Assembly: GCA_054600435.1 (NCBI GenBank)
Contig: BAAIJX010000001.1
Span: 124,001-188,000 of the forward strand
Reading direction: 5' to 3'
Source of the DNA: Neophaeotheca triangularis
Lineage: Eukaryota
DNA: 64,000 nt
The notes under the pieces are model-generated. The model had not been told where the DNA came from and did no database searches. It worked only from the letters and a program-made list of their open reading frames with translations. Shown piece after piece: positions 18,928-36,847 of the stretch. The stretch's first letter is position 1, and the number at the start of each line of letters is the position of its first letter. Position numbers and translations under genes: made by a program.

Positions 18928-21168
18928 ATGCGCGAAGCCAACTTCTCCATCCCAAATGCCAACAAAGCTTCCGTTGGCATCACCACCGCCCTCTATGATC
19001 GCCGCGCACTCGATTGTACCTCGACCCTCCCGCTCATCACTTCCCTGAACAACCTCGCATACCTTACAACCTCCTCTGGCCGCATACGTGACATTTTGAC
19101 CGTCGACGGCGGCATCGAGCGTTTAGTATGCATTCTCAAAGAAGGCAGGAGCAAGGATATGATGGACATGTGGAAGTGGAACTTGGCTTTTCAGTGCATT
19201 GTCAACATAGGTGTACGAGGATCCGAGGCGGTAAGGACACGAGTCGTCGAGGCAGATATGGTTCCTGTCATCGCCACCATACTCGACAACTACTTCAGGG
19301 TAGTCGAAAAGTGCCGGGAGCGTGCGGAGCTGGAGAGCAAAAGAAAGGTTGCCAGCCAAAGTTTCTCGGCCAGCAAGAGCGGGAACTCATCGAGAAATGC
19401 AGGCCGAACAGGTACCATCAATGGCCACAGATCTGAGAGGAGTCGGCGGCAGGCTCCTCCACCGATTGCTATACCAGAAACGAGCGACACTGTAGAGGAA
19501 GGGCTGGAAAGCGAAGTGACGCCCACAGCACCTGCGGCCAACTTGTCGTTGAGCTCTCCGCCGGACGGCAGCCAATCTCGTTCACGACAATCACATCTTG
19601 GCCGCATGGCCGATGCGCAGCCTAGACAACAATTCACATCATCCAACCCGCGGTCACATACACAATCAGAGCAGCGTTCGAGGTCGTCTGCGGGCTTCCA
19701 ATTCATGCGCCCTGTGAGGGATACCGACCGACTTCCCTCCATGGCACCCGCAACAAACGCGGAGCTTTCCTCACAACCTCAGTCCCCTACCACTCCCCAC
19801 GGGCCTTCCGTAGATCGCTCCATGGCTGGAACCTTGGATAGCGAAAGCCGGCCACGAAGAAGGCCCTCCATCCGGCATCAACTCTCAACGTCTGGGAGTG
19901 ACGACGACGGTCAAATTGAGGAGGTTGCAAGCGACCCTGACTCGAACGACACCGTGGAAGCTTCATCCGAGCCAGTGGTCGGCATCCAGAACATGGACGG
20001 TGAAGGGGAGACGGACATTGTTATGCGAGACATTGTAGATGATGATACGCTACTGGTGGACTCGCAGCGCGACAACAACGATCTGACACTGGCAAGCACC
20101 AATACTGGCGACAATAACGGCACTTTCAACATCACTCATCGTTCAGCAACTGGCGATGGCAGCATGGTGCCTACGATGAACATGGATATGAACGGCGCAA
20201 CGACACCCACAGTACAAAATCCACACCCTCGAAATGCATTCGGACCTCCCAATGCAACACCCACACCAGGACCACCGGCAATCGCTCTCAATAATGGACC
20301 TACGCCCTTACACACACAAAATGCCGGTACCATACCCACCTGGTATCCTTCGCCGACACCTTCCCACAGCTCCAATACCCCTACCAATTCCGCCATATTT
20401 GCAGCCATGCCAAAAGACGAGGACGTACTAATGTCTCTCCAACTCCTCGCATACGTGAGCAAATACTGCAACCTGCGCTCCTACTTTCAGGCCACCCACC
20501 TCGTCCCTCGTCTCAAAATTGGCGCCGACCTTCGCCTTTTGGATCTCGATTACGACCCAGCAAATGATACCGGCGCTCCCACGGCGGAGCAGTTGCAAGA
20601 AGATTGGGATAACGAATTTGTGACTGCACCTGGCGATGAGCCTTACAATATTTTCCCGCTCATTGAGCGCTTCACCGCTAAGCCTTCCCGCCAAAGCAGT
20701 ACCTCCCTACCTTCGGCATACTCCAACTCCAACTTACTCAGTCCCAGACAAGGCGACATGCAATACTGGGCTGGCGTGGTTATGCGCAATTTGTGTCGCA
20801 AAGATGAAGCGCGCGGTGGAATCCGGCAATGCGCTTACTGGCAATGTGGCAAGTGGGAGCAGTTTCAACGGCAATTTGCCAAATGCCGTCGATGTCGCCG
20901 GACAAAGTACTGCAGCAAAGAATGCCAAAAGGGCGCCTGGGGGAGCCACAGGTTCTGGTGCGTGGCCGCTGAAGAGGGCAACCGAGAAGGCGCCCCAGAC
21001 CCTACCAGCGCCTCTTTCGATGTCGCACCGAACGCGGGCGAAGGCTCTTCTAGACAGGACTTGGCTATTGCTGGGAATGGCAGTGGCTCTTCGAGGCATG
21101 GTCACAGGCACAGGCATCACCATCGCCATGGGCATGGAAGACATGGTCAGCCCGAAGGCCAGGTCTAG
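18928..21168 (+). CDS. samB: MYND-type zinc finger protein SamB/Mub1
   Basis: MREANF..ITTALYDRRALDCT; WAGVVMRNLCRKD..GGIRQCAYWQCGKWE..FAKCRRCRRTKYCSKECQ. Confidence 0.92.
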   Translation: MREANFSIPNANKASVGITTALYDRRALDCTSTLPLITSLNNLAYLTTSSGRIRDILTVDGGIERLVCILKEGRSKDMMDMWKWNLAFQCIVNIGVRGSEAVRTRVVEADMVPVIATILDNYFRVVEKCRERAELESKRKVASQSFSASKSGNSSRNAGRTGTINGHRSERSRRQAPPPIAIPETSDTVEEGLESEVTPTAPAANLSLSSPPDGSQSRSRQSHLGRMADAQPRQQFTSSNPRSHTQSEQRSRSSAGFQFMRPVRDTDRLPSMAPATNAELSSQPQSPTTPHGPSVDRSMAGTLDSESRPRRRPSIRHQLSTSGSDDDGQIEEVASDPDSNDTVEASSEPVVGIQNMDGEGETDIVMRDIVDDDTLLVDSQRDNNDLTLASTNTGDNNGTFNITHRSATGDGSMVPTMNMDMNGATTPTVQNPHPRNAFGPPNATPTPGPPAIALNNGPTPLHTQNAGTIPTWYPSPTPSHSSNTPTNSAIFAAMPKDEDVLMSLQLLAYVSKYCNLRSYFQATHLVPRLKIGADLRLLDLDYDPANDTGAPTAEQLQEDWDNEFVTAPGDEPYNIFPLIERFTAKPSRQSSTSLPSAYSNSNLLSPRQGDMQYWAGVVMRNLCRKDEARGGIRQCAYWQCGKWEQFQRQFAKCRRCRRTKYCSKECQKGAWGSHRFWCVAAEEGNREGAPDPTSASFDVAPNAGEGSSRQDLAIAGNGSGSSRHGHRHRHHHRHGHGRHGQPEGQV

Positions 21169-22031
21169 GAAGCCGGGCCTGGCAACGAACCTGTCCAGCC
21201 GGGGGTGACGCAAGCATATTCCCTTCCCCGAACGGAGTGAATAGGGGGTTTACGGGAGAGATAGTACTTTGATTGAGCGTTACGATTATAATATTCTTTT
21301 CTCTAGCATGGCGATATGCATGAATTGGCAGGCGGGCGAACCATTGGTGTTGAGGCAATCCTAGAATGAGCGCATCGGGTTGGCAAAGGAAGAGGAAATA
21401 TGCATCGCCAGGCGAATCTGGGGTCGAATGCTTCCTTCGACCGGACTGCATCGTTTTCCTGAACGGCTTTGGCTGGGGTCAATGATGGGCAAATGTCCGG
21501 TACTGCGCGCTGGGACCGGGGTGCCTTGAAATGCGAAGCAGTGTGAAGATACCTTCATGAAATAGCCTTTTCGTAGCAGTTGATAGCGTTCTTGTTGAAG
21601 CTTGCACTCTTTTTCTCTATTTTGGGTTTCCAGCTCCAAGTTCATCAAAGTCTTGACTATCAGCATACCCCTGTCATGACCGAGTGGGCATAGGGGATCC
21701 AGCCAGGCATTACTGGGAGTTGAGAAAAGAATAGCATGGTACGGTCCATCGGGCAAGCGAAACCTGTGCTCTGCATTTTCGTTTTTACTTTTCAAGTCTG
21801 TATGTACTTTCCTTCCTACCCAATGCGTTCGCGCGGCAACCCGCCATTCAATGCACGAACTATTCTAGCAGCTACCAGCCGATATCCAAGCAATAAACAG
21901 CAGATTTCAACTCTACTGGCAACCGCTTGCAGATACTTGAATCATCCCAACTACACCGCAGACCCTTGCCCACAGCATCGGCTCGGGGGAAGAGAGAGAA
22001 AGAGAGAAGGAGAGAGAGCAAAGCCTCCCCA

Positions 22032-23249
22032 TTAGCGACGGTAAAGCGCCCGACGACGGGTGAAAGTCGCATTCCCGCCGGAGGCGGAAGACGAGGAACC
22101 AACCCTGCCGACACCGGCGTCCGCAGTCACGGCATTGGCAACGCCGTCGGCAGCCTGAGCCTCGACAGCACTTGAACCAATAGAGGACAGCACGCTCGAG
22201 CTGCTGTAGGAGCCAAAGTCCCCCGAATCGGAAGAGACCGAGTTGGCGACACAGGGCCTGCCGAGAGCGGCGCTGCAGTCGCCTTCGGAGCCCGAGGGGA
22301 CGTTGAAGATGGCGCCGCCGTGGCTGGCGCTCTCGGGCGTGATGGGCTGCGCGACCGACTCGAAGACGTTGGCCTCGATGAGCACGCTGGCGCCCTCGGA
22401 GATGTCGAAGGCGTGGCCCGTGTTGTCTTGCCAGTAGTTGTTGACGGCGTGCATGACGATGTTGCCGTTGCCGCCGACTTTGGGGCTGCGGCCGGAAGTC
22501 GTGTGGATGTAGTTGCCCTGGAGGGTGATTTTGTCGGCTTCGCCCAGGAAGAGCATGGACCAGTAGTGGTGGCCGTCGCAGGAGGCGGACCAGTCCGTCT
22601 CGCCGTCGAATTCGTTGGACGAGATGGTGACTTTGCCCGCTTGCTCGTAGCCGGTGACGATCATCTGGCGGCCGGTGAGGGAGAATTTGCAGTGGTCGAT
22701 CCAGACCATGTCGGTGCCGGCGAGGGTGATGGCGTCGCCGCCCCAGATGTATTGCGGGTTCAGGTCGGTGAAGTGGATGTTTTGGATAATGACGTTGGTG
22801 ATGCCGTTGGCGAGACGGAGGCCTTTGCCTTTGATGACGGCGTCGCTGCCGACGCCGACGATGGACTTGTCTCCGGCGATGTTGATGGCGTTGACCCCGG
22901 CTTCATCGTAGGTCACTTCCACCGAGGGAAACGAGGCGTCGCACCAGTCTGCGCCGTTGATGGCGTCCTGGCCGCCGTTGCCCGGGCAGGTGTTGGAGTC
23001 TGGACGGCAGCCCGTCTCGGTCGTGCTGCCCTCGCTGCCGGTGAAGTCGTACGTCTTGTCGAGGAGGATGACGCGGGGTGAGTTGTCGGTGAGGTAGCTG
23101 ACCAGCTCGTCAATGTCGGCGGGTGTCACTGGGGACGCATCCCCACCGCCCGTCACGCCGGATGCGAAGCCAGATGCGGCTCCAACGACCTGCGCCAGCG
23201 CAGTGTTGGAGGCGTAAAGAGCGCCCAAAAGGAGGGCTTTGGGAAGCAT
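22032..23249 (-). CDS. secreted pectin lyase (polysaccharide lyase family 1)
   Basis: Signal peptide MLPKALLLGALYASNTALA; VVGAASGFASGVTGGG; KGKGLR; WGGDAITL; VWIDH; TSGRSPKV; HAVNNYW. Confidence 0.92.
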   Translation of the reverse strand: MLPKALLLGALYASNTALAQVVGAASGFASGVTGGGDASPVTPADIDELVSYLTDNSPRVILLDKTYDFTGSEGSTTETGCRPDSNTCPGNGGQDAINGADWCDASFPSVEVTYDEAGVNAINIAGDKSIVGVGSDAVIKGKGLRLANGITNVIIQNIHFTDLNPQYIWGGDAITLAGTDMVWIDHCKFSLTGRQMIVTGYEQAGKVTISSNEFDGETDWSASCDGHHYWSMLFLGEADKITLQGNYIHTTSGRSPKVGGNGNIVMHAVNNYWQDNTGHAFDISEGASVLIEANVFESVAQPITPESASHGGAIFNVPSGSEGDCSAALGRPCVANSVSSDSGDFGSYSSSSVLSSIGSSAVEAQAADGVANAVTADAGVGRVGSSSSASGGNATFTRRRALYRR

Positions 23250-24492
23250 AGTGGGGGAAAAAAAAAGACGAACAAAGAGCGACGAATCAAAGTAACGATG
23301 GGAATTGCAAGTCAAACAGGAAAAAGGCGGAAGCAGTAGGAATGTGAATAGCGAAAGGGAAATACCCCAAGGACGAGACCTACCTACCTTTATCATATTT
23401 TGTCGACAACATCAAGATGGGTCAAGCTTGTTGATTACCGGAATGCGAAGTGAGGATCGTCTGTCTTAGCAGGGCTTCTGATGAATGCTTTGCAAGCGTG
23501 ATGTCGTGGCATGCCGCATAGTATGGGAAATGGTCTAGGTGAAACAGACCCACACGACTTGCAAGGTTGGTTTCAAGGGTACTAACTAGTACTGGAGGTA
23601 GTAAGTAGTTAACATGCCGGGCCGAACCTCAGCGATCTTGTCTGTCTTGGGGAAGTCTTAACTACCTACATAGTATGAGGTAGACGTGTCGTCGATACAA
23701 AGGCAGGGCAGACTGCTACCTGGTCCTGGGTAGTACCTTAAGGGGTTACATTAACGTTAGCCTGGGTGTGCGTCCCATCGTCGTAAGCTTCTGAGAAGTG
23801 TGCATTGATACTACTATGTACCTAGTATTCCCAGGGTGAGTCTAAACTGTACGAGGTAGATTATTACTGTGTACCATCATACAGACCATGCCATGTATAA
23901 TGTACTTATTACTGTGTCAATCTGGCCTCTTACACAATTCATCCGTGACCATGGGAGGCGGCCCAGCTGCTTTCTTTCCTGCCCTCGACTCCTCGAGAAG
24001 GTGCCTTCTCTCGCCTTTGTTATCGTCCAGTCTTGCCTGCCACTCGTCTGAGCGGCTTCCTGGTACTGCGCTGAAGCGGTTGATACTCCTAAGTAGGTAC
24101 TGTACTGTACCTATGTACTAATAATCCATGCTGTCAAGAGTCGAATCACAGTAGAAACCTCCTCCCGTCCGCTAAAAGGTGACAGAGGCGACGCAAGGGG
24201 TAGACCGTATTGGGACACCCCCGCTGATGGTGGTGGCAACCTGTGATTGGTCAGTCTGACTTCACCCTACCTTCTGACTGCGCCTCTCTCTTATTTTTTT
24301 GCCATATCTCCTATCGGTACAAAGCGCCTCCGTCGTTGACCATGCATGACAGTGACTGACATTCGTTTTGAAGCCTGTGGCCTTCATCATTCGCTTACAG
24401 AGGAGACAGCATAACAACAGCCACTCGGCTAGACCAATCGCTCCCAGATCACAGCCTGACCTCAGCTCGTGAAATACAGCCAGGCGGCCAGC

Positions 24493-26406
24493 ATGACAAC
24501 GCAACAGGACTTTGCTTCGCTCGAACCAATCGCTTCTGCTGCTACTATTACCCCCGAGACGCAGAGCGAAGATGCACCAGAAGCCGAGTCACCTCGCCTA
24601 ACGACTTCACGCTCTCCGGAGCTCAACAGACAAACGACACAGGCCGCGAGACGACGCAGCACCCATTCAGTAACTGCAGACATAGACGATGGAGCACGAA
24701 TGAGGAGGCCGTCCCGTACTAACACCGTCAAGACCTACCATCAACCTGAACTTGCCGAACAGCCCAACTGGCATCCCGGTGCTGAACCCGGAATCGACAC
24801 GGCCGCTGAGCACGACGATGCCTTGCCACACTTGCAGGCGCTCAAGGCAAAGTGCGACATCACAATCATCGACTTTTCCGATTCCGAGGTCTTCACTGCG
24901 CAATGCGATAACAACGATTTGGCAAAGTTACTCGAAGAGCCCCAAGTGGAGGATACTTCCTGCCGATGGATCAGTGTGAATGGCTTGAGCTGGGACGTCA
25001 TCAAGTGCCTCGGAAACAGGTACAATCTCCACCGTCTGGCAATAGAGGATCTCATAAACACACACTCTCGTACAAAGGTCGACTTCTACTCCGACCACGC
25101 TTTTCTCTGCTTGACCCTGCAAAAGCTCGTGCGTCTACACAGACATGATGCGACTAAGGGCCCTTGCGATTGTCCAGGAGTCGAGCATTACGAAGATGAT
25201 AAGATGCCTTCCAGAGTCTCCAAGTATCGCAGGAGAAGCAGATGGGCCAACAACCGACGGGAACCCGACGAGCTGCCCCCTTCTTACCTTGAGGCCGGTG
25301 CCTCCGATAAATTCCAAGAGTTTATCACGGCACACAGCGGTACTTCAGACGCATCGCCGATTAAACCCATCCGGACCCTCCATCGGTACGATAGCGCGCA
25401 GATACCGGAGCACACCGCGTTCATGGAACGCCACAGCGCTCTGAGTAGCGAAGACTTGGTTGTTAGTGTTGAGCAGGTCGCCATGTTTTTGTTGGCAAAT
25501 AACACGGTCATCTCGTTCTTCGAGCATTCCGCACAGGATGTGGAAGACCCAATTCTGGATCGGCTTCAGAGTAGTGAGACGATACTGAGACGGAGTTGCG
25601 ACGCCTCTCTCCTTGTGCAGGCCATCATCGACGCTGTCGTCGACTTGACTATCCCGGTCAAGGACGCCTACAACAAAGCCCGGAAAGACCTGCAAGTCGA
25701 TGCCCTTACAAACCCCGACATCAAAACATCCCGAGCCCTCCACATCTTTGGTGAAGAGATTGACATGCTGCAAAACCTCTTCAAACCCATCGTCCATCTC
25801 GTCAACGCTTTACGAGATCACCACACCGAGGCCACTACCTTTGTACACCCTTACGAAACCAATCCCGACGAATCCGCCCCGCCCAACGAGTCACGTCCAG
25901 CTAACCGTGCCAATCACCGTAACCGCGAGGGCGTGCCCAACTTCCAGCGCATATCATCCGACTTCCGACGCCTCGTGGTCCACCGCAACCAACCCGCCAG
26001 CAGCGTCACCATCTCCCCCTTAGCCCGAACCTACTTCGGCGACGTCCTCGACCACTGCATCACCCTCATCTCCACGCTCGAGCAAATGGATGCCAGCGCA
26101 AACAACATCTCAACCCTCATCTTCAACACGGTTGGCGCCCGCACCAACAACTTCATGTACATACTCGCGCTCGTGACCGTCTTTTTCAGTCCTTTGACCT
26201 TCATTAGCGGATACTTTGGCATGAACTTCGCCAATGGCGCTGGACTGGATCACTCTTTTGCCTTCTTCTGGTTGATCGCCGCGCCCAGTTTGGCGGCTTT
26301 TATGATTATTGTGTTTGGGTATATGCTCTGGGATAACGTCAAGGACCTTTTGGCTAAAAGGGGTGTTCGGGAGCATAGGAGCAGGAGGAAGAGGAAACGG
26401 GTGTGA
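24493..26406 (+). CDS. CorA-family Mg2+ transporter-like protein
   Basis: RWISVNGL; LHRLAIEDL; VEQV; YFGDVLDH; PLTFISGYFGMNF (GMN signature) followed by a TM helix. Confidence 0.9.
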   Translation: MTTQQDFASLEPIASAATITPETQSEDAPEAESPRLTTSRSPELNRQTTQAARRRSTHSVTADIDDGARMRRPSRTNTVKTYHQPELAEQPNWHPGAEPGIDTAAEHDDALPHLQALKAKCDITIIDFSDSEVFTAQCDNNDLAKLLEEPQVEDTSCRWISVNGLSWDVIKCLGNRYNLHRLAIEDLINTHSRTKVDFYSDHAFLCLTLQKLVRLHRHDATKGPCDCPGVEHYEDDKMPSRVSKYRRRSRWANNRREPDELPPSYLEAGASDKFQEFITAHSGTSDASPIKPIRTLHRYDSAQIPEHTAFMERHSALSSEDLVVSVEQVAMFLLANNTVISFFEHSAQDVEDPILDRLQSSETILRRSCDASLLVQAIIDAVVDLTIPVKDAYNKARKDLQVDALTNPDIKTSRALHIFGEEIDMLQNLFKPIVHLVNALRDHHTEATTFVHPYETNPDESAPPNESRPANRANHRNREGVPNFQRISSDFRRLVVHRNQPASSVTISPLARTYFGDVLDHCITLISTLEQMDASANNISTLIFNTVGARTNNFMYILALVTVFFSPLTFISGYFGMNFANGAGLDHSFAFFWLIAAPSLAAFMIIVFGYMLWDNVKDLLAKRGVREHRSRRKRKRV

Positions 26407-27250
26407 TTGGAAGGTTGTACTTCTGGTTAGGGATATTGGAGGTTTCCTGAGGAGCAAGGCTCGGGGGTGTGGACGACCTGAGGGTGAAGACTTTTCCTGA
26501 GCATGGAGGTGTCATTACGGCGTTCAGTAGGAGAGTATACCCCTAGTGTTATCTGAGAATTCATTCTAGCTTACGTTCCTACCCCCTGCTCCCTCCGTTC
26601 GACTGGAGTCTGCCTCGCCCACCAAAAGCTTTCCCCTTTAGCTTCTCAAGAGTAATAGGGCCCCTCCACCTCACCTTACAAACGAGGTTGGCAGGGAGGT
26701 CCAGGCTTGTGGGAGCTCGGCTGAGATCTGGAGGGCCATCTGGCTATTCTCCGCAACTTGCTAGAAGCCTTGGGATCAGGAAGAAGCGGTCAATTGTAGG
26801 CGGAAAAGGGTGAAATACCAGTGATCATACTACGTACCCGCAAAACAACACTGTTAGGACGATGACGCCATGGCAACCATGCCCTGCCCTTGACCCCCTT
26901 CACTGTACTTTGCACCTCGTCATAGGCGTAGGCGGCAACGCTCCCAAGGCATTCCATTCACTGAAACCCGACTCGTGTTGCCATTGCTGAGTGGCCCGTG
27001 CGTCCACTCTCCCTATTCCCAACTCTCATGCCCTGTGACTTGCTGCTACCTTCTCTTCACCCTTTCCCACAACAACCATATTCACGGGGGCAAGCACCGC
27101 AACACCTCATACTTGGCTGGCCGCCGCTACCAACTCCTTCCAAAACTTGGTCCTCTGCTCCACAAACCGAAGCGAAGCATTTTGGAGGTAAGTCTCCCCT
27201 GTAAGCCCCCATTAAACTCACCCGTATTAACCCCGGAGCGACCAGCCACT

Positions 27251-27703
27251 ATGAACTTCACCTCACACATCCGAACCCTGCACCGCTACGATGCCGACGA
27301 GTACAAGCTGTGGAAGATTGAAGTCCGAGACGTTCTAATCGCCAACAACGCCTGGGAGCAAATCACCGACGAAGCGATCCACGACCACAAATGGGAGGCC
27401 AACGACGCTCTCGCCCGCCTCATCATCCGCCACTTCGTCGACGAGGATCTGGTGGAAATGGTGGCCTGTCTTGGGACCGCGAAGCTGAGCTGGGACTTCA
27501 TCAAGTACCGCGTCAAGGTTTTGACGACGATCCAGCAAAGGGGCGTCTTCGATCCGTATGGCATTGGGCTCGGCGATCAGGAGAAGAGGTTTCTCGCGCG
27601 TCGCGAGCGTTTGTGCTTGATTAGGAACGGGGTTGCGGAGTCGGTTATCGATGATACCATGTGGAGCATCGATAGCGAGGAAGAAGAGGACGTGTGGGAG
27701 TGA
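27251..27703 (+). CDS. Ty1/copia Gag N-terminal-like protein, copy 1 (150 aa)
   Basis: YKLWKIEVRDVLIANNAW..WEANDALARLII..TAKLSWDFI matches the copia Gag pattern (DUF4219 / Retrotran_gag_2-like) by eye; putative 5'-UTR intron 27188-27245. Confidence 0.65.
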   Translation: MNFTSHIRTLHRYDADEYKLWKIEVRDVLIANNAWEQITDEAIHDHKWEANDALARLIIRHFVDEDLVEMVACLGTAKLSWDFIKYRVKVLTTIQQRGVFDPYGIGLGDQEKRFLARRERLCLIRNGVAESVIDDTMWSIDSEEEEDVWE

Positions 27704-28266
27704 CGGGGCTCTGCAGCCTAGCTAGCTTGCGTGATCACGCTGTCGTGCTGTTGGTGCAATCCGCGTAGCTTGATCCAGTATACCACAGCAAACCTCTCAA
27801 GGTCCCTACTTCTTCATCTGAGCGTATCTACTACCCACGCTCGGGTACCATAGCTTATCAATTCGGCTATCTTCATACCCGAACTTACCGTTTCACATGG
27901 GAGGTGCTGACCGGTGTCGCCTGATGACCTCATGCATCTTCTTCGGCTTCACTTTGGCCCGCCCTCCAGGTGTTTTGATGCGTGATCCGTGCGTCGAACC
28001 TACCTACCTATATCAAGCCCGCCAACCTCGCTCTTTCCCTACTTAACTCTTTGCATAACAAAGTCAATCACCATAATTGACCAATTCTGGGCTCCAAAAA
28101 CCAAGCTGATGCGAACAGCATCTCGCTTTCGGACATAGCTTAGATTGCAACACCCATCACGACACGGCGGACACGCGGTGAAAGTCAAAGCACTCCTCAA
28201 AGTCAGCACAGTTTTGCTTCGCCTGGCCCACACGATATCCATACTGACCAGAGGCAGACCACCAAG

Positions 28267-28818
28267 ATGCAATTCGCCGAGTGCATTGGTCTCCTCGACG
28301 AGAACGCAGGCAAAAGTGCTTGGGCGTGGCGAATCCAAGTCAAAGACGTCCTCATGGCGAACAAAGTCTGGCAACACGTCAACGGCGAACACCAACGTCC
28401 ACAGGAGAAGTCGGCTGCGCAAGAATGGGATTCCCAGGACGCTCTCGCTCGCCTCATCATACGCCGCTTTTTGGTCAACTACTTGGTCAAGAAGGTTCTC
28501 GTCTTGGCAACTTCACAGGAGACTTGGGATTATCTTGAGGGACGTACCAAGGCCCTGGCGGATCTGCGCGCCACGCGTGACGACGGCCCTTCGGACGATG
28601 AGCTCGAGTTTCTTGGATTTGAGGACGAGGATAAGGGATGCCCGGCTTTGCTAAGTTCGAGCGTCGTTTCGCGGCGAGGAAGCGTTCTTAGATTGGACCA
28701 CGAGGCTGCATACCAGCGTTCTTTGCTGTGGCATCCAGCAGACAGCTTGCCTCTGTGCCCAAGACGATTTGAACTTGATTGCCAGTGCATGGGGTTGCTC
28801 GCTCGACAGCAAGTGTAG
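28267..28818 (+). CDS. Ty1/copia Gag N-terminal-like protein, copy 2 (183 aa)
   Basis: WRIQVKDVLMANKVWQHVNG..P..WDSQDALARLII..TSQETWDYLE; shares DALARLIIR with copy 1; putative 5'-UTR intron 28202-28257. Confidence 0.65.
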   Translation: MQFAECIGLLDENAGKSAWAWRIQVKDVLMANKVWQHVNGEHQRPQEKSAAQEWDSQDALARLIIRRFLVNYLVKKVLVLATSQETWDYLEGRTKALADLRATRDDGPSDDELEFLGFEDEDKGCPALLSSSVVSRRGSVLRLDHEAAYQRSLLWHPADSLPLCPRRFELDCQCMGLLARQQV

Positions 28819-29710
28819 CTTTGTACCCTCATCTCATCTCATCGCATGGTTCAATGCCCAGGTATTGTTGTGCCTACGCCCACTGTTGCCGTTCTCCCAG
28901 TGTAAGTGGCCCTTTGACAAGTCGACTTCCTTTTCGGCTTCACTTATTCCTACTTCCATTCGTGGTCTGTGTGTCGATTTAGCCCATAGCTTGGGATTGA
29001 TGACCACGCGGTTGCCAAGTAAGATGCAGAATGGATGTCTCGTGATAAGCGCGATAGCTCGAACACAGCAAGAACAGTAACGAAATACAGGAACCATGCT
29101 CTTCTCTTTCCAACAAGGTGCGCTGTCCGCCATTATGTGATTTTAATGGTACGATGCTCTGCTGGAAGGAAGCACTTCAATGTGAAATCCAATGAGAGGC
29201 TCGGAGGTTCAAGAGATGACCCAAAGTTTCTCGTCGCTTGAGTCGTTCTTCTGGACTTCGGTCCCAGGAGATCGCCATACATCAGGTTGACGAGTGATTC
29301 CAAATGAAAAGCGCCGTTTGAGCTACGCAGTGGACCAAATCGTCCCGCTTGTCCAGACGTATCATCCTCGTTCAGCTCATCTTGTCATGATACTTCCGGA
29401 TAGGATCGCATCGCGCCTTTCCGTGACCATCAGCCCCACCCCAACACACACGAGAGTTGTCTAAAACAACAAGACCGCATATTCCACCTCACCACCCAAG
29501 TCTCCTTTCGACTGGACATCCTGGCACGAACCCACACCACCTCTTCGCGCAAGCTCTCCCAGAAGGCCACAAGCTGGTGCTCAAGCTCTCGAGTACCAAC
29601 AGCAAGCCTCTTCTTCTTTCAGTGAATCCCCATACCCCCCCAAAAGAGAAGATTCACTCCACGTCTGCAAAGCACATCGCTCTTTCACAACAGTTCTTCC
29701 AGTACCAGCG

Positions 29711-30055
29711 ATGGACCTCAACGGCATCCAGTTTGCGCGCAAGCTCTCCTCCGACCCAAACGACTACGCGAGCGGATATTGCGGACGCTCTCCGAGCGAA
29801 AGGCATCGCAGGCCACGTCACAGGCTCCAGCTCGAAGCCCTCCCGCATCCACGGCGGCCGGCCTTGTCGATGAGACATGTACGCCAGTGACGCTAGCTTC
29901 CGAAGCACGCGCGGGCTGAGTGGGAGTGCAAGAACGCCGAGGCCTGCTTCATCATTAGGGCCACTCTTGAGAACGACGTGGCCATGCAAGTGGATTTCCT
30001 CGGACCTGCTGTGGAGGTGTTTGGGACTTTGGAGGACGAATACGGCCACAGTTAA
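29711..30055 (+). pseudogene. frameshifted copia Gag-like gene, copy 3
   Basis: MDLNGIQFARKLSSDPNDYAS / shifted frame DIADALRAKGIAGHVTGSSSKP / original frame after stops RAEWECKNAEACFIIRATL..AVEVFGTLEDEYGHS*. Confidence 0.55.
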
Positions 30056-30434
30056 AAAGTGCTGGGGATATTATGCCGAGGGAGAGGGTCGGGAGTGGAA
30101 GCACTGCTTTCGTCTGTGGGATCACGAAGCCCGCTGCACATTTCCCAGCAAGCGCTCCCGATCGCTGTTGATGACTTCGTCTATAGCTTTGAGTCTTTCA
30201 GCATCAGCTACTAGACACAAGAGGGTACACTCAGTACTTAGCTCGCCAGTATCAAGAACACCATCAAATGCTTATCAAGTCGCTCAACCTCGCCTCCCAA
30301 ATGCTGAAAGAGTCAATCCCAAACGCCAGGCCGTAAAATCCCACTACTCATGAGTTATCCACTCTTGTCAACGTCAACACAACTCAAGATTGATCCTTCT
30401 CCATGCTGAGAATGAGATTAAGCAGAACCAATCT

Positions 30435-32022
30435 CTACGAGTTCCCCTGGCCACCATCAGTTGGACTCATATCCACATTCGTGCTGCTGAAGTCCAAGTT
30501 TCCAGTCTGACACCACCCATTAACCGGCAAGCAAGACAGGTACTTGCACCAGCCGCACCCAGTCCGCCACTCATAAAAGTTCCTCAGAAGTAGTATGAAG
30601 CCGATGAGGCAGCCTAGAAGAGCAGCGGCGCGAACCAACCACCAAGACCACCAAAGACCCTTCCTGTTGCGGAAGAAACCAATAGGCTGGCGAAAGAATC
30701 CTGTTATACCTTCTTCGCGGGATGTGCGTGAAGGAGCGGGCTGGGTCTCTGGAATTTGGTAGGGGTCGTAGTTGACGGGGATTTTAGAGGTGCGCTGGGA
30801 GAGTTTTGCTGGACTGCGGAGGAGACAGACACCTAGCACTAGTCCCATGAGGAAGCCGCCAATGTGGCTAAAGTTGTCGAGACCCGGTAGCAAGCCGAGG
30901 ATGAAGGCAATGACTATGTCCACGAAGATCCAGGCTAGTTCGACTTTCGGCGAGGCGTGGGTGCTCCAGTTGTAGAGGAGGTCCAGTAGAGTGATTGCGA
31001 GGATGCCGAAGATGCTTCCACTACACCCGGAAGAGGCGATTCCTGTTGCGGCGAAGTTGCCACCAAGCACGAAGCCAAAGATACCGGCGGCGAAGTATAC
31101 AAGGACGAAGCGGACACTACCGATTAGCTTTTCTACATCGCGACCCAATGTGAGCTGTAGCAAAAGGTTGAAACCGATGTGAATGATACCAGCGTGGAGG
31201 AAAATGGGCACGATGAAGCGCCACCACTGGTTTGGCATGTTCGGGTCTGAGAGGTCGCCGTTCGGCTCGGGGTTCGGGACACCACCAAAACCGCAAAGGT
31301 CGGAGAGCGTGCAGGAAACGTCGTCGCCTTCGAAGGAGGTGGCGTCAGGACAAGGCCATAGGATGGGCTGAGTGTTGTTTTGTACGTTGGCCATGTTGTG
31401 CATGCAGGGCTGGTAGCGCGCGCCCATGTTGATGAGCACGTAAGGAGATGGCCCGATCATTGGGTTGAACTGCGGCTTGATCGCAATCGGTGTGCCAGTG
31501 AGAACTCCTATATATGTATCGTCAGCAACCATCCATGCTTTGATCTCGCCTACGTGGCCAACACTTACCCATCCGGACAATTTCCGCTATGAAGACAACC
31601 AGTTGTACCACTGACAGAGTGAAGCAGACCCAAGTTATCTTCCCCGAGAACCAGCCATCCTTGCTCTTTCGCCTTCGCTTCTTGTGCGGGTCAGTATCTC
31701 TTACAAATGGGTCCACCGGCTCTGGCGCGAGTATTGGGGCGACCGAGGCCGTAGAATCATGCTTCTTCCTCCTCCCAGTCAGGGGTATGGCGTCGTTGTC
31801 TTCGTAGGGATCGGCATCGTCTGGTATCCTGCCACTTGCGCCCGAGTAGGATTGGGAGGGAGTCTGGTGTTGGTAAGAGTATCTCGGGTCGTCGAAGGGC
31901 GATTGTGATTGTGATGATGGCGGAGGGAGTGGTGGTAGCGGCGCATCGTTGCGGCGATCGTAGTAGTCGTTGTAATGATCGTGGCCGTAACCGGGTTGCT
32001 CGTAGTAGTTGTTGGCTGCCAT
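30435..32022 (-). CDS. rhomboid-family intramembrane serine protease; exons 32022-31569, 31507-30435
   Basis: NPMIGP; WWRFIVPIFLHAGIIHIGFN; GCSG (catalytic Ser); DNFSHIGG (catalytic His); intron 31568-31508 GTAAGT..CTGAC..TAG. Confidence 0.9.
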
Positions 32023-32388
32023 GGAGAAAGTACTATGCTTTGAGATGGTCGAGTGCAAGTAGAAGACGGGACTTAATGGTGGTACTGAAGCTTCCGCCGG
32101 CGGATCCAGAGTATTAAGTGGTTAGTATGAGGGTGAGACAGGAAAGATGAAGAGCGGCGGTTGCTTCCAAAACAGGCCGAAAGAAGCGAAGATGCGTGCG
32201 GGCAATGCAGCTGGTTCTCTGGCGCCTGCTCAATCCTCTAAACACCTAAGAAGGTGAATGGTAGGCAGAGAAGACGTGCTTGGCGTGGATTGTTTGACGG
32301 TGGCGCATGTGACGACAATGCGGCCGGGGAATCAAGAATACATGTGGCTTGAAGCAGACAAAAGTAACAAAGCGACGGGAGACAATGA

Positions 32389-32418
32389 TGTAGTAGTAGT
32401 AGTAGTAGTAGTAGTAGT
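32389..32418. repeat. (GTA)n microsatellite
   Basis: gtagtagtagtagtagtagtagtagtagta. Confidence 0.85.
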
Positions 32419-33230
32419 AACGCAGAAATTACCAAGGACGTGTCTCGTTGAAAGATGAGGCTGGAGGGAGGTGGCCAGTGGGAGCTTCCACCTGCATTGT
32501 CCTCGGTGGTGGTGGTCGCGGTGGTGGTCGTCGTCGTTGACGCACGTGCATGACATGCATGTCCAAAGCACCCGACCGCGGTGTGGGTCTGTCTCCAGCT
32601 CCAAGACTGACTGCAGGTGGCATTCGAGGTTGCTTACGACAACAACCTTGGAACACTACTACTACGGTGAAATTCTGTGCTGATGGGACCAAAATCCTGT
32701 TCCCTCAAGACGAGAGATCCAGCAACTGGTCGGCGGTAGTTGGCCCCTCAGAAGGCCTTCTACTTACCTCACGTTGCATGGTCGCCATACCTTTCAGCCT
32801 CCTCCAGTGAAGCCTGGCTGTTGTCACAACGGCAAAATACTGACTTCTGATTCTGCAAGAGCTTGCACACTGATATGCCAGAGTTATCTTCGTTTACCGA
32901 CCGCTCACGCTGATCGACGTCGGTCATGCTTTTCGGAAGGGCAGAAACAAAGAGATGGCCACATATTTTCTTTGACGGAAGTACCCCCTTTGTCCCCTGT
33001 AAATGAAATGTCGACAACAATGGCACAATCGCCTTGTTAGAATCCTTTCATGGTTCAGAGAGCACGAGTATACAAGTCCAAGTCTCGGTGCCATTCCTTT
33101 TCATTTCTTATTTCAGTAGAAACGTCGCGCGAAAAGTGTTATACTGCCCGAACTCACCACTAACAACACCACAAGAACATCAAGCACTTACGAGAGCCTT
33201 GGATACGCCCATACTGCCCTCATAAACACG

Positions 33231-33812
33231 ATGGACAAAGTAAGCACTCCCCCCTCCCCAAAGGCCGAAGAAAGCCTGATACCCTTCTACATGGCGCTTG
33301 CCCGAGCAAAGCAACCGTCCCCAACCCCTGACCCTCTTTACCTTCACGTCGAAGCAGCCCTGGACATTGAAGGCTGCATCGACGACTGCAACTCTCACGC
33401 AGCGACCCTAATCGCAGAAGCCCAGCATCAGCTCTCGCTCCCTGCCTGCGTGTTTCTGCCCGCTGACTACGATGTAACCACTGACGACAAGCTCTCGGAC
33501 CCCCGCCGCACCAAACTCTCCAAAATGGTGATAGAGAACGGCGACCGAGCCCTCGCAGCTTCGCAAAAGACCTTCGGCAGAGTCATGGGCTTGATCGACA
33601 AGCATCAGACTGAAGGCCTCGAAGCGCTTTCCATGCCAGAGGAGGATGTTGTGCTTTCGCCTTCACCACCAGCTCCTCAGACACCGAGGGTTTCGCCGAC
33701 GCCCAAACCTTCCAAGCTGCCTAAGCGTTCGAGCTCCCAGAAGTCCGCTGTGCCGGTCGCGAAAGGTAAGCCCTCGCCGCTTAGTTCGCGTATTCCGGTG
33801 GCTTCGCACTGA
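33231..33812 (+). CDS. hypothetical protein (193 aa) with Pro/Ser/Lys-rich tail
   Basis: ATG ORF with gene-like codon usage; no recognised domain. Confidence 0.55.
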   Translation: MDKVSTPPSPKAEESLIPFYMALARAKQPSPTPDPLYLHVEAALDIEGCIDDCNSHAATLIAEAQHQLSLPACVFLPADYDVTTDDKLSDPRRTKLSKMVIENGDRALAASQKTFGRVMGLIDKHQTEGLEALSMPEEDVVLSPSPPAPQTPRVSPTPKPSKLPKRSSSQKSAVPVAKGKPSPLSSRIPVASH

Positions 33813-34701
33813 CTTGCGGTAGGAGCTTCGGTTGGTTGTGAGAGGAGGCAGGCTGCTGCTAGGAGGAGTTTGCATAGAGCAGATGTCATGGTAAGCTGGT
33901 CAGCGGGCGCCGGGCATGTTCGTTTGTTTTTCATTCTGGTTTTGATTGCCGCGGTTTTTGGAAGAACAGGTTGACTGGAGGTGGCGTTGGATGCCGTTTG
34001 ATATAGAGCTTTTAGTGTTATCATCTCCTTTGGCTGTGGATCCGCTGAATTCTCTCTCCGTCGCACTTTCATCGCTAACAGTTCTATTCGTTGCTTTACT
34101 CCGTGGTGAGCGTCTCTCTAATAATCTCTAGAGCAAGGAGACATCGTGGAAGAACACTTCTCGTCCGAGTCTGTGGCCATAGGTGTCCACCTTGCTCATG
34201 CTGCACTAAGTCTACGGCAGTATATGCAGACATCATTTGACCGCCGTCTCGCACAAAATCTTGTCCATAATCATCACAACTGCTTTGCCATCCTGAAACA
34301 AGTTGAATCGTCGAATTTGTAGTGGTATTGATGTAGTTACAGTCTTTTGTAAGTGCTACCTCACTGGGTAGGTAAATTTGGCACGTCCATTGGCTAGCGC
34401 AGGATTGTCACAGCCAATTGGATCATGGAACACCCAAAGTGAAGTTCTCTCATGCTACCGATTGAGCGTGCCGCGCAGTTTTCGAACATCGTTCGTGGTA
34501 AAAGACCTACCCGATTCCGTCGACTGTGAGCAACTTCTGGTCTCCGTGGGGCAAGCTGTGGCTGCCCCTTGTCGTCGCCGGCCTCTTGATTGCGCGGAAG
34601 TCAGCATTCATCCCGCGGATCTACCCGCACTCTCTTCAATCACCTCACATTGGCAACTTCATATCACCCCCGTCTCCTCCTCAAGGTCTCGAGTACACAA
34701 G

Positions 34702-35693
34702 ATGCCTCCACGGTTACAACTACTCAGTCGGTCGCTGGCCATAGCGTCGCGGCCGTCTTACCAACCTATCGCGCCCTTCCTCTATCCAACCGCGAACACC
34801 TCGCAGTACCGCGCCGCATCAATCTTGTCCTCCCTCTCTGATACTCCAGGCGCCTACAACAAGCGCAAGCGTCTCGGTCGCGGACCAAGTTCAGGCAAGG
34901 GAAAAACATCTGGTCGTGGACACAAGGGACAAAAGCAGCATGGAAAGGTCCCGTTCGGCATGAACGGAGGTCAGACTCCAGACGAGGTCGTTTCTGGCGA
35001 GAGGGGTTTCGAGAACCGGTATGTGGCAGAACATGCTCCCTGCGTCTCCCAAGGATACCGTTTTACTGACTATGTTACCTAAGGTTCTCGATTGACATGT
35101 CCCCCGTAAACCTCAACAAAATCCAATACTGGATCGACCGCGGCCGCCTCGACCCTGCCCAACCGATTACACTGAAAGAACTGAACCACACGCGTTGTAT
35201 CCATGGCGTCAAAGACGGCGTCAAGCTCCTCGGTCGCGGTCTCGAGGAGTTCAAAACTCCAATCAACATCGTTGTCTCGCGAGCCTCTGCGGACGCCATC
35301 GCAGCGGTGGAGAAGGCTGGCGGTACCGTGACTACGCGCTACTACACCAAGACAGCTATCAAGCGTATCATGAAGAGCCAGACGGACCCCATTCACAGCC
35401 TGCAGAGCAGAATAAGGATGGCCCCGGAAAGTGCTGAGGGCGCGGAGGGTGCGGCAGAGAGTCTGACGGCGGATTTGAAAAGGTTCCCGTTCCGCTTGCC
35501 TGACCCGACGAGCAGAAAGGACTTGGAATACTATCGGGACTCGGCTCATAGGGGTTATCTGAGCCATCTTGTGGAGGAAGGTCATGGTCCCAGCTTGTTC
35601 TTCAAAACTCCTGGAATGGGCCGGGTGAATAGGAAGGATGCTGGCAAGAAGGGTGGCAAGACTGCTATGAGGAGCGAGAACAGGCTCTGGTAG
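34702..35693 (+). CDS. MRPL10: mitochondrial ribosomal protein uL15m; exons 34702-35018, 35084-35693
   Basis: [55 protein letters not shown]. Confidence 0.93.
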
Positions 35694-36847
35694 ATGTGTA
35701 AGTATAGTTTGTGCAAATAATAAAGCAGGTTTCTCATGCTCAGAATACGGCTTCGCTGTGCGTCCCGAGACTTCACAAACGCACGCTCAAAAAGCGCCTC
35801 GACGTTCAAGTGACTTTTTTTACCTACCGAATTCACTGTAACACTCATTCCGCTTGCGCCGAATAAAATCGTCGCTTTCACGGCCCACACCCACCGCCCT
35901 TGTCGACAACGGATAACGTTCCAAGATGGCACATGCGATGTCGATCCTCGCGCACCCCCAGGACCTCGATAATTCACTTCTCGGTGGTCTACCCCCGTAT
36001 CTACGTAAGACCACCGAGAGTCGAGCGCCAGCCCGCTTTAGTGGACACTGGTACTCAGCTATGAGCTTGCATTCCTTTGGCCTCACAGCTTACAGCCCAC
36101 GCAGAGCGATAGCCGTTGCAGCAATTCCACAATCCTGAAGTATAGCAACCCCGACCAAACCTTTGTGAGCCTTACTCGCTTTTGCCGGAGCTGTGCATCT
36201 GGAGGCGAAGTTTGAAAAATGAGTGAGTGGGATCAAGGAGGTCGTCAAAGCAGTTGTAACGTCGGGATAGTGCAATGCGTCGCGGCTGGGCATGATGGGA
36301 CTTTGGGAGGCGCTTTGGAGTGCAAGGACATCCACAAGGCATCTCTAATTGGATTGAGCTAGCAGTTCGATTCGTCGTGCGCGAAACGTATGGATCGCGT
36401 TGTAGCGGCAGCTATAGCTAAGTGGGCCAATCGCACGCTCTCTGCAACTCTGGATCAACGTCTCACATCATGCCCCTATGCCCTCGATCGTGAGCAGGCA
36501 TCAACAGAAAGCGTCGGGACATATTATTCGCCTCGTCGACCCGTAGTACAAAAGGTGCGCAACGACGTTGCGCAGTACCTATGCCTTTCCTCCATTTGAC
36601 TGCTGCTTACTGTCAGACCACCACCATGTACATCAATTCTTGGCAGTGGGGAGCTTGGGAGCAATACGCAGCACTCGTCTTCGTTCCGACAACCCACCAT
36701 TGGACAGGGCGAGGAGCTCTCGCATCACATGAACACATCAGTTGCGCAATGGCAGATACGGAACTCGTATGCGCGGGAAGCGGAAAACGCCTCGGGGCGC
36801 GCAAGGCAAGTACGCTGTAGTAGTAGTCGTGTTGCAGCTACAAGCCC

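Follow-up and report, generated by a model that had tools for sequence, protein, structure and literature searches.

A tandem gag-like cluster between CorA and rhomboid genes

The window analysed here is a 64 kb stretch of fungal DNA, positions 124001-188000 of contig C1 of the Neophaeotheca triangularis genome, in which a CorA gene (24493-26406, forward strand) and a rhomboid gene (30435-32022, reverse strand) flank a tandem cluster of gag-like sequences. The tandem unit is about 1 kb long with a period of 991 nt, and its upstream elements and reading frames are as follows.

26957-27075, forward: upstream element of unit 1, pyrimidine-rich and putatively promoter-like
27251-27703, forward: copy 1 ORF, 150 aa, copia capsid N-terminal domain (approximately residues 1-100) followed by an acidic tail that is not Gag
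27948-28061, forward: upstream element of unit 2, 991 nt from that of unit 1
28267-28818, forward: copy 2 ORF, 183 aa as read, PF14223 E 2.3e-7
28928-28977, forward: third, weak copy, limited to the start of the upstream element, again at an offset of 991 nt
29711-30055, forward: copy 3, broken, homologous at 29769-29840 and, in another frame, at 29903-30034, with stops between them

Other host genes nearby encode a protein with a pectate lyase domain (22032-23396, reverse), a MYND finger protein (18928-21168, forward) and a protein with a ribosomal L27A/L15 domain (35097-35693, forward). No tRNA genes were found in the window.

Copy 1 alone gave no Pfam match and a PDB sequence search gave no match, while the PF14223 cut-off was passed by copy 2 and by two related proteins, P0002 and P0003. 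Predicted from an alignment that included copia Gags, and thus leaning towards the copia capsid fold, the structure of copy 1 residues 1-104 (pLDDT 79) matched the Drosophila Copia capsid 8vvw with a VIA Z of 11.7, the match spanning chain residues 3-103 and the next unrelated entry reaching 6.1, and a second Drosophila Copia capsid structure, 8s41, with a VIA Z of 10.8; Foldseek placed it on the Copia capsid with a TM score of 0.68, an rmsd of 1.7 over 81 columns and an E-value of 0.014. The match is to the N-terminal domain of the Drosophila capsid; its C-terminal domain and zinc knuckle (CCHC) are absent from copy 1, and the alignment stops short of the C-terminal domain. A model of all 150 residues built from 4 sequences was unusable (pLDDT 47). 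ESM Atlas returned copia Gag clusters at no more than 0.85, which we treat as a lead only, and a DUF4219 search found no match anywhere, its controls being likewise silent. Codon use in the cluster is host-like, with coding scores of 0.076 (copy 1) and 0.084, where the host median is 0.071.

The only close relatives found by our searches were P0001, P0002 and P0003; four distinct proteins of the family were found (copies 1 and 2, P0002 and P0003), and a protein search of the N. triangularis genome found copies 1 and 2 only. The first 116 residues of P0001, labelled as a hypothetical protein of N. triangularis, match copy 1 exactly. The 41-nt internal intron that P0001 implies (27600-27640) scored -16, far below every host intron, and is probably an artefact of the gene model. 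P0003, a relative with 38% identity from a different genome (an assembled public sequencing run), has the non-Gag tail in common with copy 1 and looks like an unspliced read-through.

Copies 2 and 3 are less intact. Copy 2 shares 90% of residues 1-130 with P0002 and leaves the P0002 frame near 28650; the last residues of P0002 are found in another frame of the window, and the last ~55 codons of copy 2 are not family sequence and have a coding score of -0.043. Copy 3 ends before the tail, its last piece matching PF14223 at E 0.074. These frame changes could be assembly errors: a noisy test left 15 of the 35 strict frame switches in 800 kb unexplained by an intron.

The frame 5' of copy 3 (29466-29640) resembles P0003 residues 92-147 at a level reached by 0 of 10000 shuffles (E 1.2 over 464 kb), possibly through composition or shared leader DNA. 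A 14-nt exact repeat lies 5' of copy 3 and inside it (29546-29559 and 29736-29749, 190 nt apart), recurs in part near 29583 and is perhaps a local duplication. A scan of metagenomes confirmed 3 of 213 candidate stretches; one (L003) is an AT-rich, plant-like copia element with 33% identity, and the other two (L004, L005) have the same match statistics and GC content.

An upstream element common to both units

Each of the first two units carries an upstream element of ~120 nt that lies 110-140 nt 5' of the predicted splice donor. The two elements align with a score of 51, compared with 25.7 ± 3.7 in shuffled sequences; none of 500 shuffles and none of 66 host upstream regions reached this score. 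The third copy scored 33, against a 99th percentile of 30 and a maximum of 36 in shuffles, and is weak on its own. Since the element is common to both units, the duplication took upstream DNA along with the ORF. The element is better conserved than the leader that separates it from the ATG, and may represent a core promoter. An Rfam search gave no match to it.

Predicted introns before copies 1 and 2

The original prediction placed a spliceosomal-type intron just upstream of the ATG of copies 1 and 2. On re-reading the sequence, all coordinates of these splice motifs proved right, and the relevant features are listed below.

27028-27030, forward: upstream ATG, in frame with copy 1 after removal of 27188-27245
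27188-27245, forward: predicted intron of copy 1, 58 nt, donor GTAAGT, acceptor CAG
28109-28138, forward: upstream ORF of nine codons within exon 1 as predicted for copy 2
28202-28257, forward: predicted intron of copy 2, 56 nt, donor GTCAGC, acceptor CAG, alternative acceptor at 28266

To score these motifs we used coding and splice-signal models trained on 800 kb of the N. triangularis genome outside the window, the splice models having been seeded with textbook fungal motifs, which biases them against rare donors. Of 302 candidate junction groups, 84 were kept as inferred host introns and the 218 that scored below 1 were dropped. The retained introns have a median length of 60 nt (quartiles 57-73) and 40 of the 84 measure 50-60 nt, so that the claim of host-like sizes for the two motifs also holds. 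The controls, 4227 non-coding ATG sites, include real introns and are therefore conservative.

In copy 1, the branch motif ATTAAC starts at 27226 (branch A at 27230), and the CAG ending at 27245 is followed by CCACT-ATG, with the ATG at 27251. On the model trained on 800 kb this motif scored 8.8, above 63 of the 84 host introns; a single control out of 4227 reached that score, as did 0 of 2000 dinucleotide shuffles under a first, smaller model, and host introns are ~110 times denser than controls near it. Its TTAAC branch is found in none of the 84 host introns. Starting from a prior of ~5% (4 of 69 long ORFs scored at least 4.2 before their first ATG), we estimate that the copy 1 motif, taken alone, is very probably a real intron.

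In copy 2, the branch motif CTGAC is at 28244 (branch A at 28247), and the CAG ending at 28257 is followed by ACCACCAAG-ATG, with the ATG at 28267. The score here was 5.6 (3.7 with the alternative acceptor), above 29 of the 84 host introns; it was reached by 21 of the 4227 controls and by 14 of 2000 dinucleotide shuffles (first, smaller model), and host introns are ~22 times denser than controls near it. From the same prior, the chances that this motif alone is a real intron are roughly balanced. Both motifs have the GT donor, branch site and YAG acceptor of U2-type introns together with host-like strength and size, and on the forward strand between 26500 and 30300 only the donors of copies 1 and 2 gave scores of at least 3. 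Judged from these signals, the motif of copy 1 is strong and that of copy 2 is moderate and positionally concordant with it, splicing being predicted in both.

Could both motifs be chance matches in leaders that are unexpressed or unspliced? They had been picked by eye, which leaves room for such matches, but the near absence of the copy 1 score from controls and shuffles and the excess of host introns near both scores argue against it, and we give this explanation very little credence.

A weaker candidate had also been proposed before copy 3. Its GTGAAT (29622) and a CAG ending at 29693 are present, but no branch-site pattern lies between them, and the score of -3.2 falls below all 84 host introns and was reached by 2691 of the 4227 controls; we rejected it. 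No intron signal was found before or inside the copy 3 ORF.

The upstream ATG at 27028 raises the question of whether the copy 1 intron lies within coding sequence instead. After splicing, the frame from this ATG has no stop in 53 codons, and P0003 has a Thr at the place of the Met of the copies and would need another start. On the other hand, the exon from this ATG has a coding score of 0.003, compared with 0.038-0.098 in the host, and a C at -3, a poor start context; unit 2 has no ATG at the corresponding aligned position, and P0001 and P0002 both begin at the downstream ATG. A coding intron is thus a reading to which we attach little weight. Given this lack of coding signal in the exon and of a matching ATG in unit 2, the ATG at 27028 is probably not used, which would put the intron in the 5' UTR. 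The copy 1 frame is in fact open for 119 codons 5' of the ATG (26894-27250), across the predicted intron and without coding signal; openness of that length is found upstream of 15 of 106 long host ORFs.

Position of the predicted intron in the two copies

Relative to the ATG, the donor lies at -63 in copy 1 and -65 in copy 2, and the branch A at -21 and -20, respectively. Among 333 other motifs scoring at least 2, only 5 fall within 2 nt (donor) and 1 nt (branch) of the copy 1 offsets. The acceptor is less constant, at 5 nt from the ATG in copy 1 and at 9 or 0 nt in copy 2, depending on which acceptor is taken. Position relative to the aligned flanks, a criterion of intron homology, agrees between the two copies. 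The intron bodies, in contrast, do not align better than chance (549 of 5000 shuffles do as well, and 371 of 5000 for the last 30 nt), as expected of neutral DNA at a dS of 1.66, and the common descent of the introns is consequently argued from position.

A further hint comes from P0003. When the unspliced copy 1 frame was compared with this protein by BLASTP, the ungapped alignment started at PVLT/PILT, which are the branch-site codons of copy 1; [IV]LT has a frequency of 0.0007 in non-coding read-through positions. Copy 2 carries the same letters in another frame, which points to constraint at the level of DNA. This back-reading from protein, noticed post hoc, suggests that the branch point is conserved in a third gene. 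A second match between the copy 1 upstream frame and P0003, PYSQLSC/PYKQLTC, was not significant (237 of 1000 shuffles).

These comparisons bear on the alternative that only the copy 1 intron is real and that the copy 2 motif is a coincidence or a dead remnant, in which case little could be said about the state before duplication. The 21 controls that reach the copy 2 score, a donor type absent from the 84 host donors, the unalignable intron bodies and the lack of an intron in copy 3 all speak for it. The agreement of offsets with copy 1 (5 of 333), the scarcity of shuffles that reach the score (14 of 2000) and the typical branch site and spacing of copy 2 (CTGAC, 11 nt) speak against it, and we consider it unlikely.

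Selection and traces of transposons

Between copies 1 and 2, dN/dS was 0.36 (bootstrap upper bound 0.66) over 110 codons, a value measured near saturation of dS and between paralogues, so that it could partly date from a transposon stage. Natural selection, one of the Crtg criteria next to synteny shared by two or more families or a gene tree that follows the host tree (PMC8321522), is seen here in a weaker, paralogue-only form. The copies show no RIP damage: their RIP substrate index is 1.04-1.25, compared with 0.02-0.43 in seven copia reverse transcriptase (RT) remnants of the same genome. All eight copia RT matches in that genome (L009-L016, on contigs C19, C24, C4, C3, C41, C2, C49 and C63) carry TAG or TAA stops, and the seven loci that were measured have a GC content of 27-39% and RIP-type indices. 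As read from these sequences, RIP has been active in the N. triangularis genome. That the copia remnants found are all inactivated might account for a relaxation of selection on copies 2 and 3, and the cluster now looks partly relaxed or decayed.

The intron and the upstream element might instead descend from the leader of a parent retrotransposon, with the cluster being a duplicated relic of the 5' end of an element and not a host gene. In favour of such an origin, some LTR elements are reported to retain functional introns (PMC5580714; PMC12786077), two of the three copies have frame damage, and the parent element was not found. Yet the LTRs, primer site and full gag and pol of an intact copia element are missing at the cluster: there is no long direct or LTR-like repeat in 22000-36000, no match to a Met-tRNA primer site better than chance and no RT match on this part of contig C1. 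A DNA search of the genome found no further copies of the upstream element, and blastn found no match between the cluster and the seven RT-bearing loci. In these seven RIP-damaged loci no related gag was found either (best E 0.13), although heavy RIP could hide one. Copy 1, moreover, is open, has host codon use and has a tail in common with P0003, and copia introns of the EVADE and BARE1 type are described at the gag-protease junction, not before gag (PMC5580714; PMC12786077). We regard the relic as quite unlikely.

Proposed duplication of a host gene together with its intron

The explanation we favour, with moderate confidence, is that the cluster descends from a host gene that was duplicated with its intron. 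The motifs and how rare they are, the upstream element common to both units, the fold, the signal of selection and the lack of RIP damage are observed, whereas transcription, splicing, common descent of the introns and the order of events are what we infer. A copia gag gene would have been trimmed to the capsid N-terminal domain, losing pol, the LTRs and the zinc knuckle, and would have become a host gene with a short non-coding exon 1 and a spliceosomal intron of ~57 nt whose acceptor sits a few bases 5' of the ATG. Tandem duplication in the interval between CorA and rhomboid would then have copied the whole ~1-kb unit of upstream element, exon 1, intron and ORF. The copies may have diverged until their neutral DNA could no longer be aligned, with the donor and branch point retained along with the upstream element and the coding core, and the acceptor shifting by a few bases.

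The original prediction had likewise proposed that the ancestor was transcribed by the host before the tandem duplication. The shared upstream element, the donor and branch offsets, the branch register of P0003, a dN/dS below 1 and the lack of RIP damage add support to this plausible proposal, and the unalignable intron bodies and the unsupported candidate of copy 3 set limits to it. One of its premises, that retroelements tend to lose introns, has exceptions: LTR elements are mostly intron-free, but copia elements such as EVADE and BARE1, as well as Ogre, are described as keeping functional introns (PMC5580714; PMC12786077). The other, that domesticated gag genes often gain 5'-UTR introns, has its source in placental mammals, whose retroelement-derived domesticated genes are reported to have gained introns with a bias to the 5' UTR and coding regions (Kordis 2011, PMC3257199). 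The present case resembles those mammalian genes in the proposed gain of an intron by a gene of transposon origin, and differs in that the gene is a fungal copia derivative and the introns, of 56-58 nt, are predicted. Among the papers searched, none paired Neophaeotheca with a retrotransposon, and neither titles nor the opening lines of abstracts mentioned a domesticated gag of a fungus that has an intron in its 5' UTR.

Few co-opted gag genes have been described in fungi. Three fungal Crtg genes are listed by Wang and Han (2021, PMC8321522), all single-copy, and two of them, Crtg12 and Crtg13, are co-opted Ty1/copia gag genes of Dothideomycetes. Like these, the cluster consists of stand-alone copia-derived gag genes with a signature of purifying selection. 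Their descriptions (PMC8321522) nevertheless set the cluster apart, Crtg12 and Crtg13 being single-copy and present in several families (Pleosporales, Mytilinidiales), whereas the genes here are in tandem, contain the N-terminal domain only and have a predicted intron before the ATG. For Crtg14, of Bel-Pao origin, a GT-AG intron with a YURAY branch point is taken in the same paper as support for co-option. A tandem, intron-bearing set with the N-terminal domain only, from another Dothideomycete lineage, would add a more recent case and, if the favoured explanation is true, an instance from fungi of a transposon-derived gene that gained an intron. Its value is limited: co-option and intron gain are both known already, the cluster looks partly decayed and its function is putative.

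As to that function, the single most likely role, which we put forward tentatively, is that of a capsid-like decoy that might co-assemble with copia Gag and spoil its particles; another protein-binding role or no present role shares the remaining probability. The decoy is modelled by analogy alone on Drt2 of Saccharomyces cerevisiae, described as an exapted Ty1/copia-type gag fragment without pol for which restriction was shown (PMC10951436), and on p22/p18 of Ty1. Drt2 is, however, a capsid C-terminal domain, whereas the cluster proteins correspond to the N-terminal domain (Copia chain residues 1-106) and lack the C-terminal domain of Drt2/p22-type restriction factors. A more specific version, unlikely in our estimate, would make the cluster a lineage-specific decoy family of N-terminal domains with an intron arising de novo in the 5' UTR after capture, tandem spread, turnover of the acceptor and restriction of copia through the N-terminal domain. 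If true, it would provide a datable intron gain in a fungus, from an ancestral gene without the intron, and restriction through the capsid half opposite to that of Drt2 and p22.

A second stand-alone copia gag is found on contig C14 of the N. triangularis genome (L107:3960-4613, forward strand; also L006). There is no pol ORF within 8 kb of it and no intron signal before its ATG. The gene is open over 217 aa and free of RIP damage, contains both capsid domains (PF14223 E 2e-12, profile positions 4-146) and adjoins a gene for an AFG1-like ATPase.
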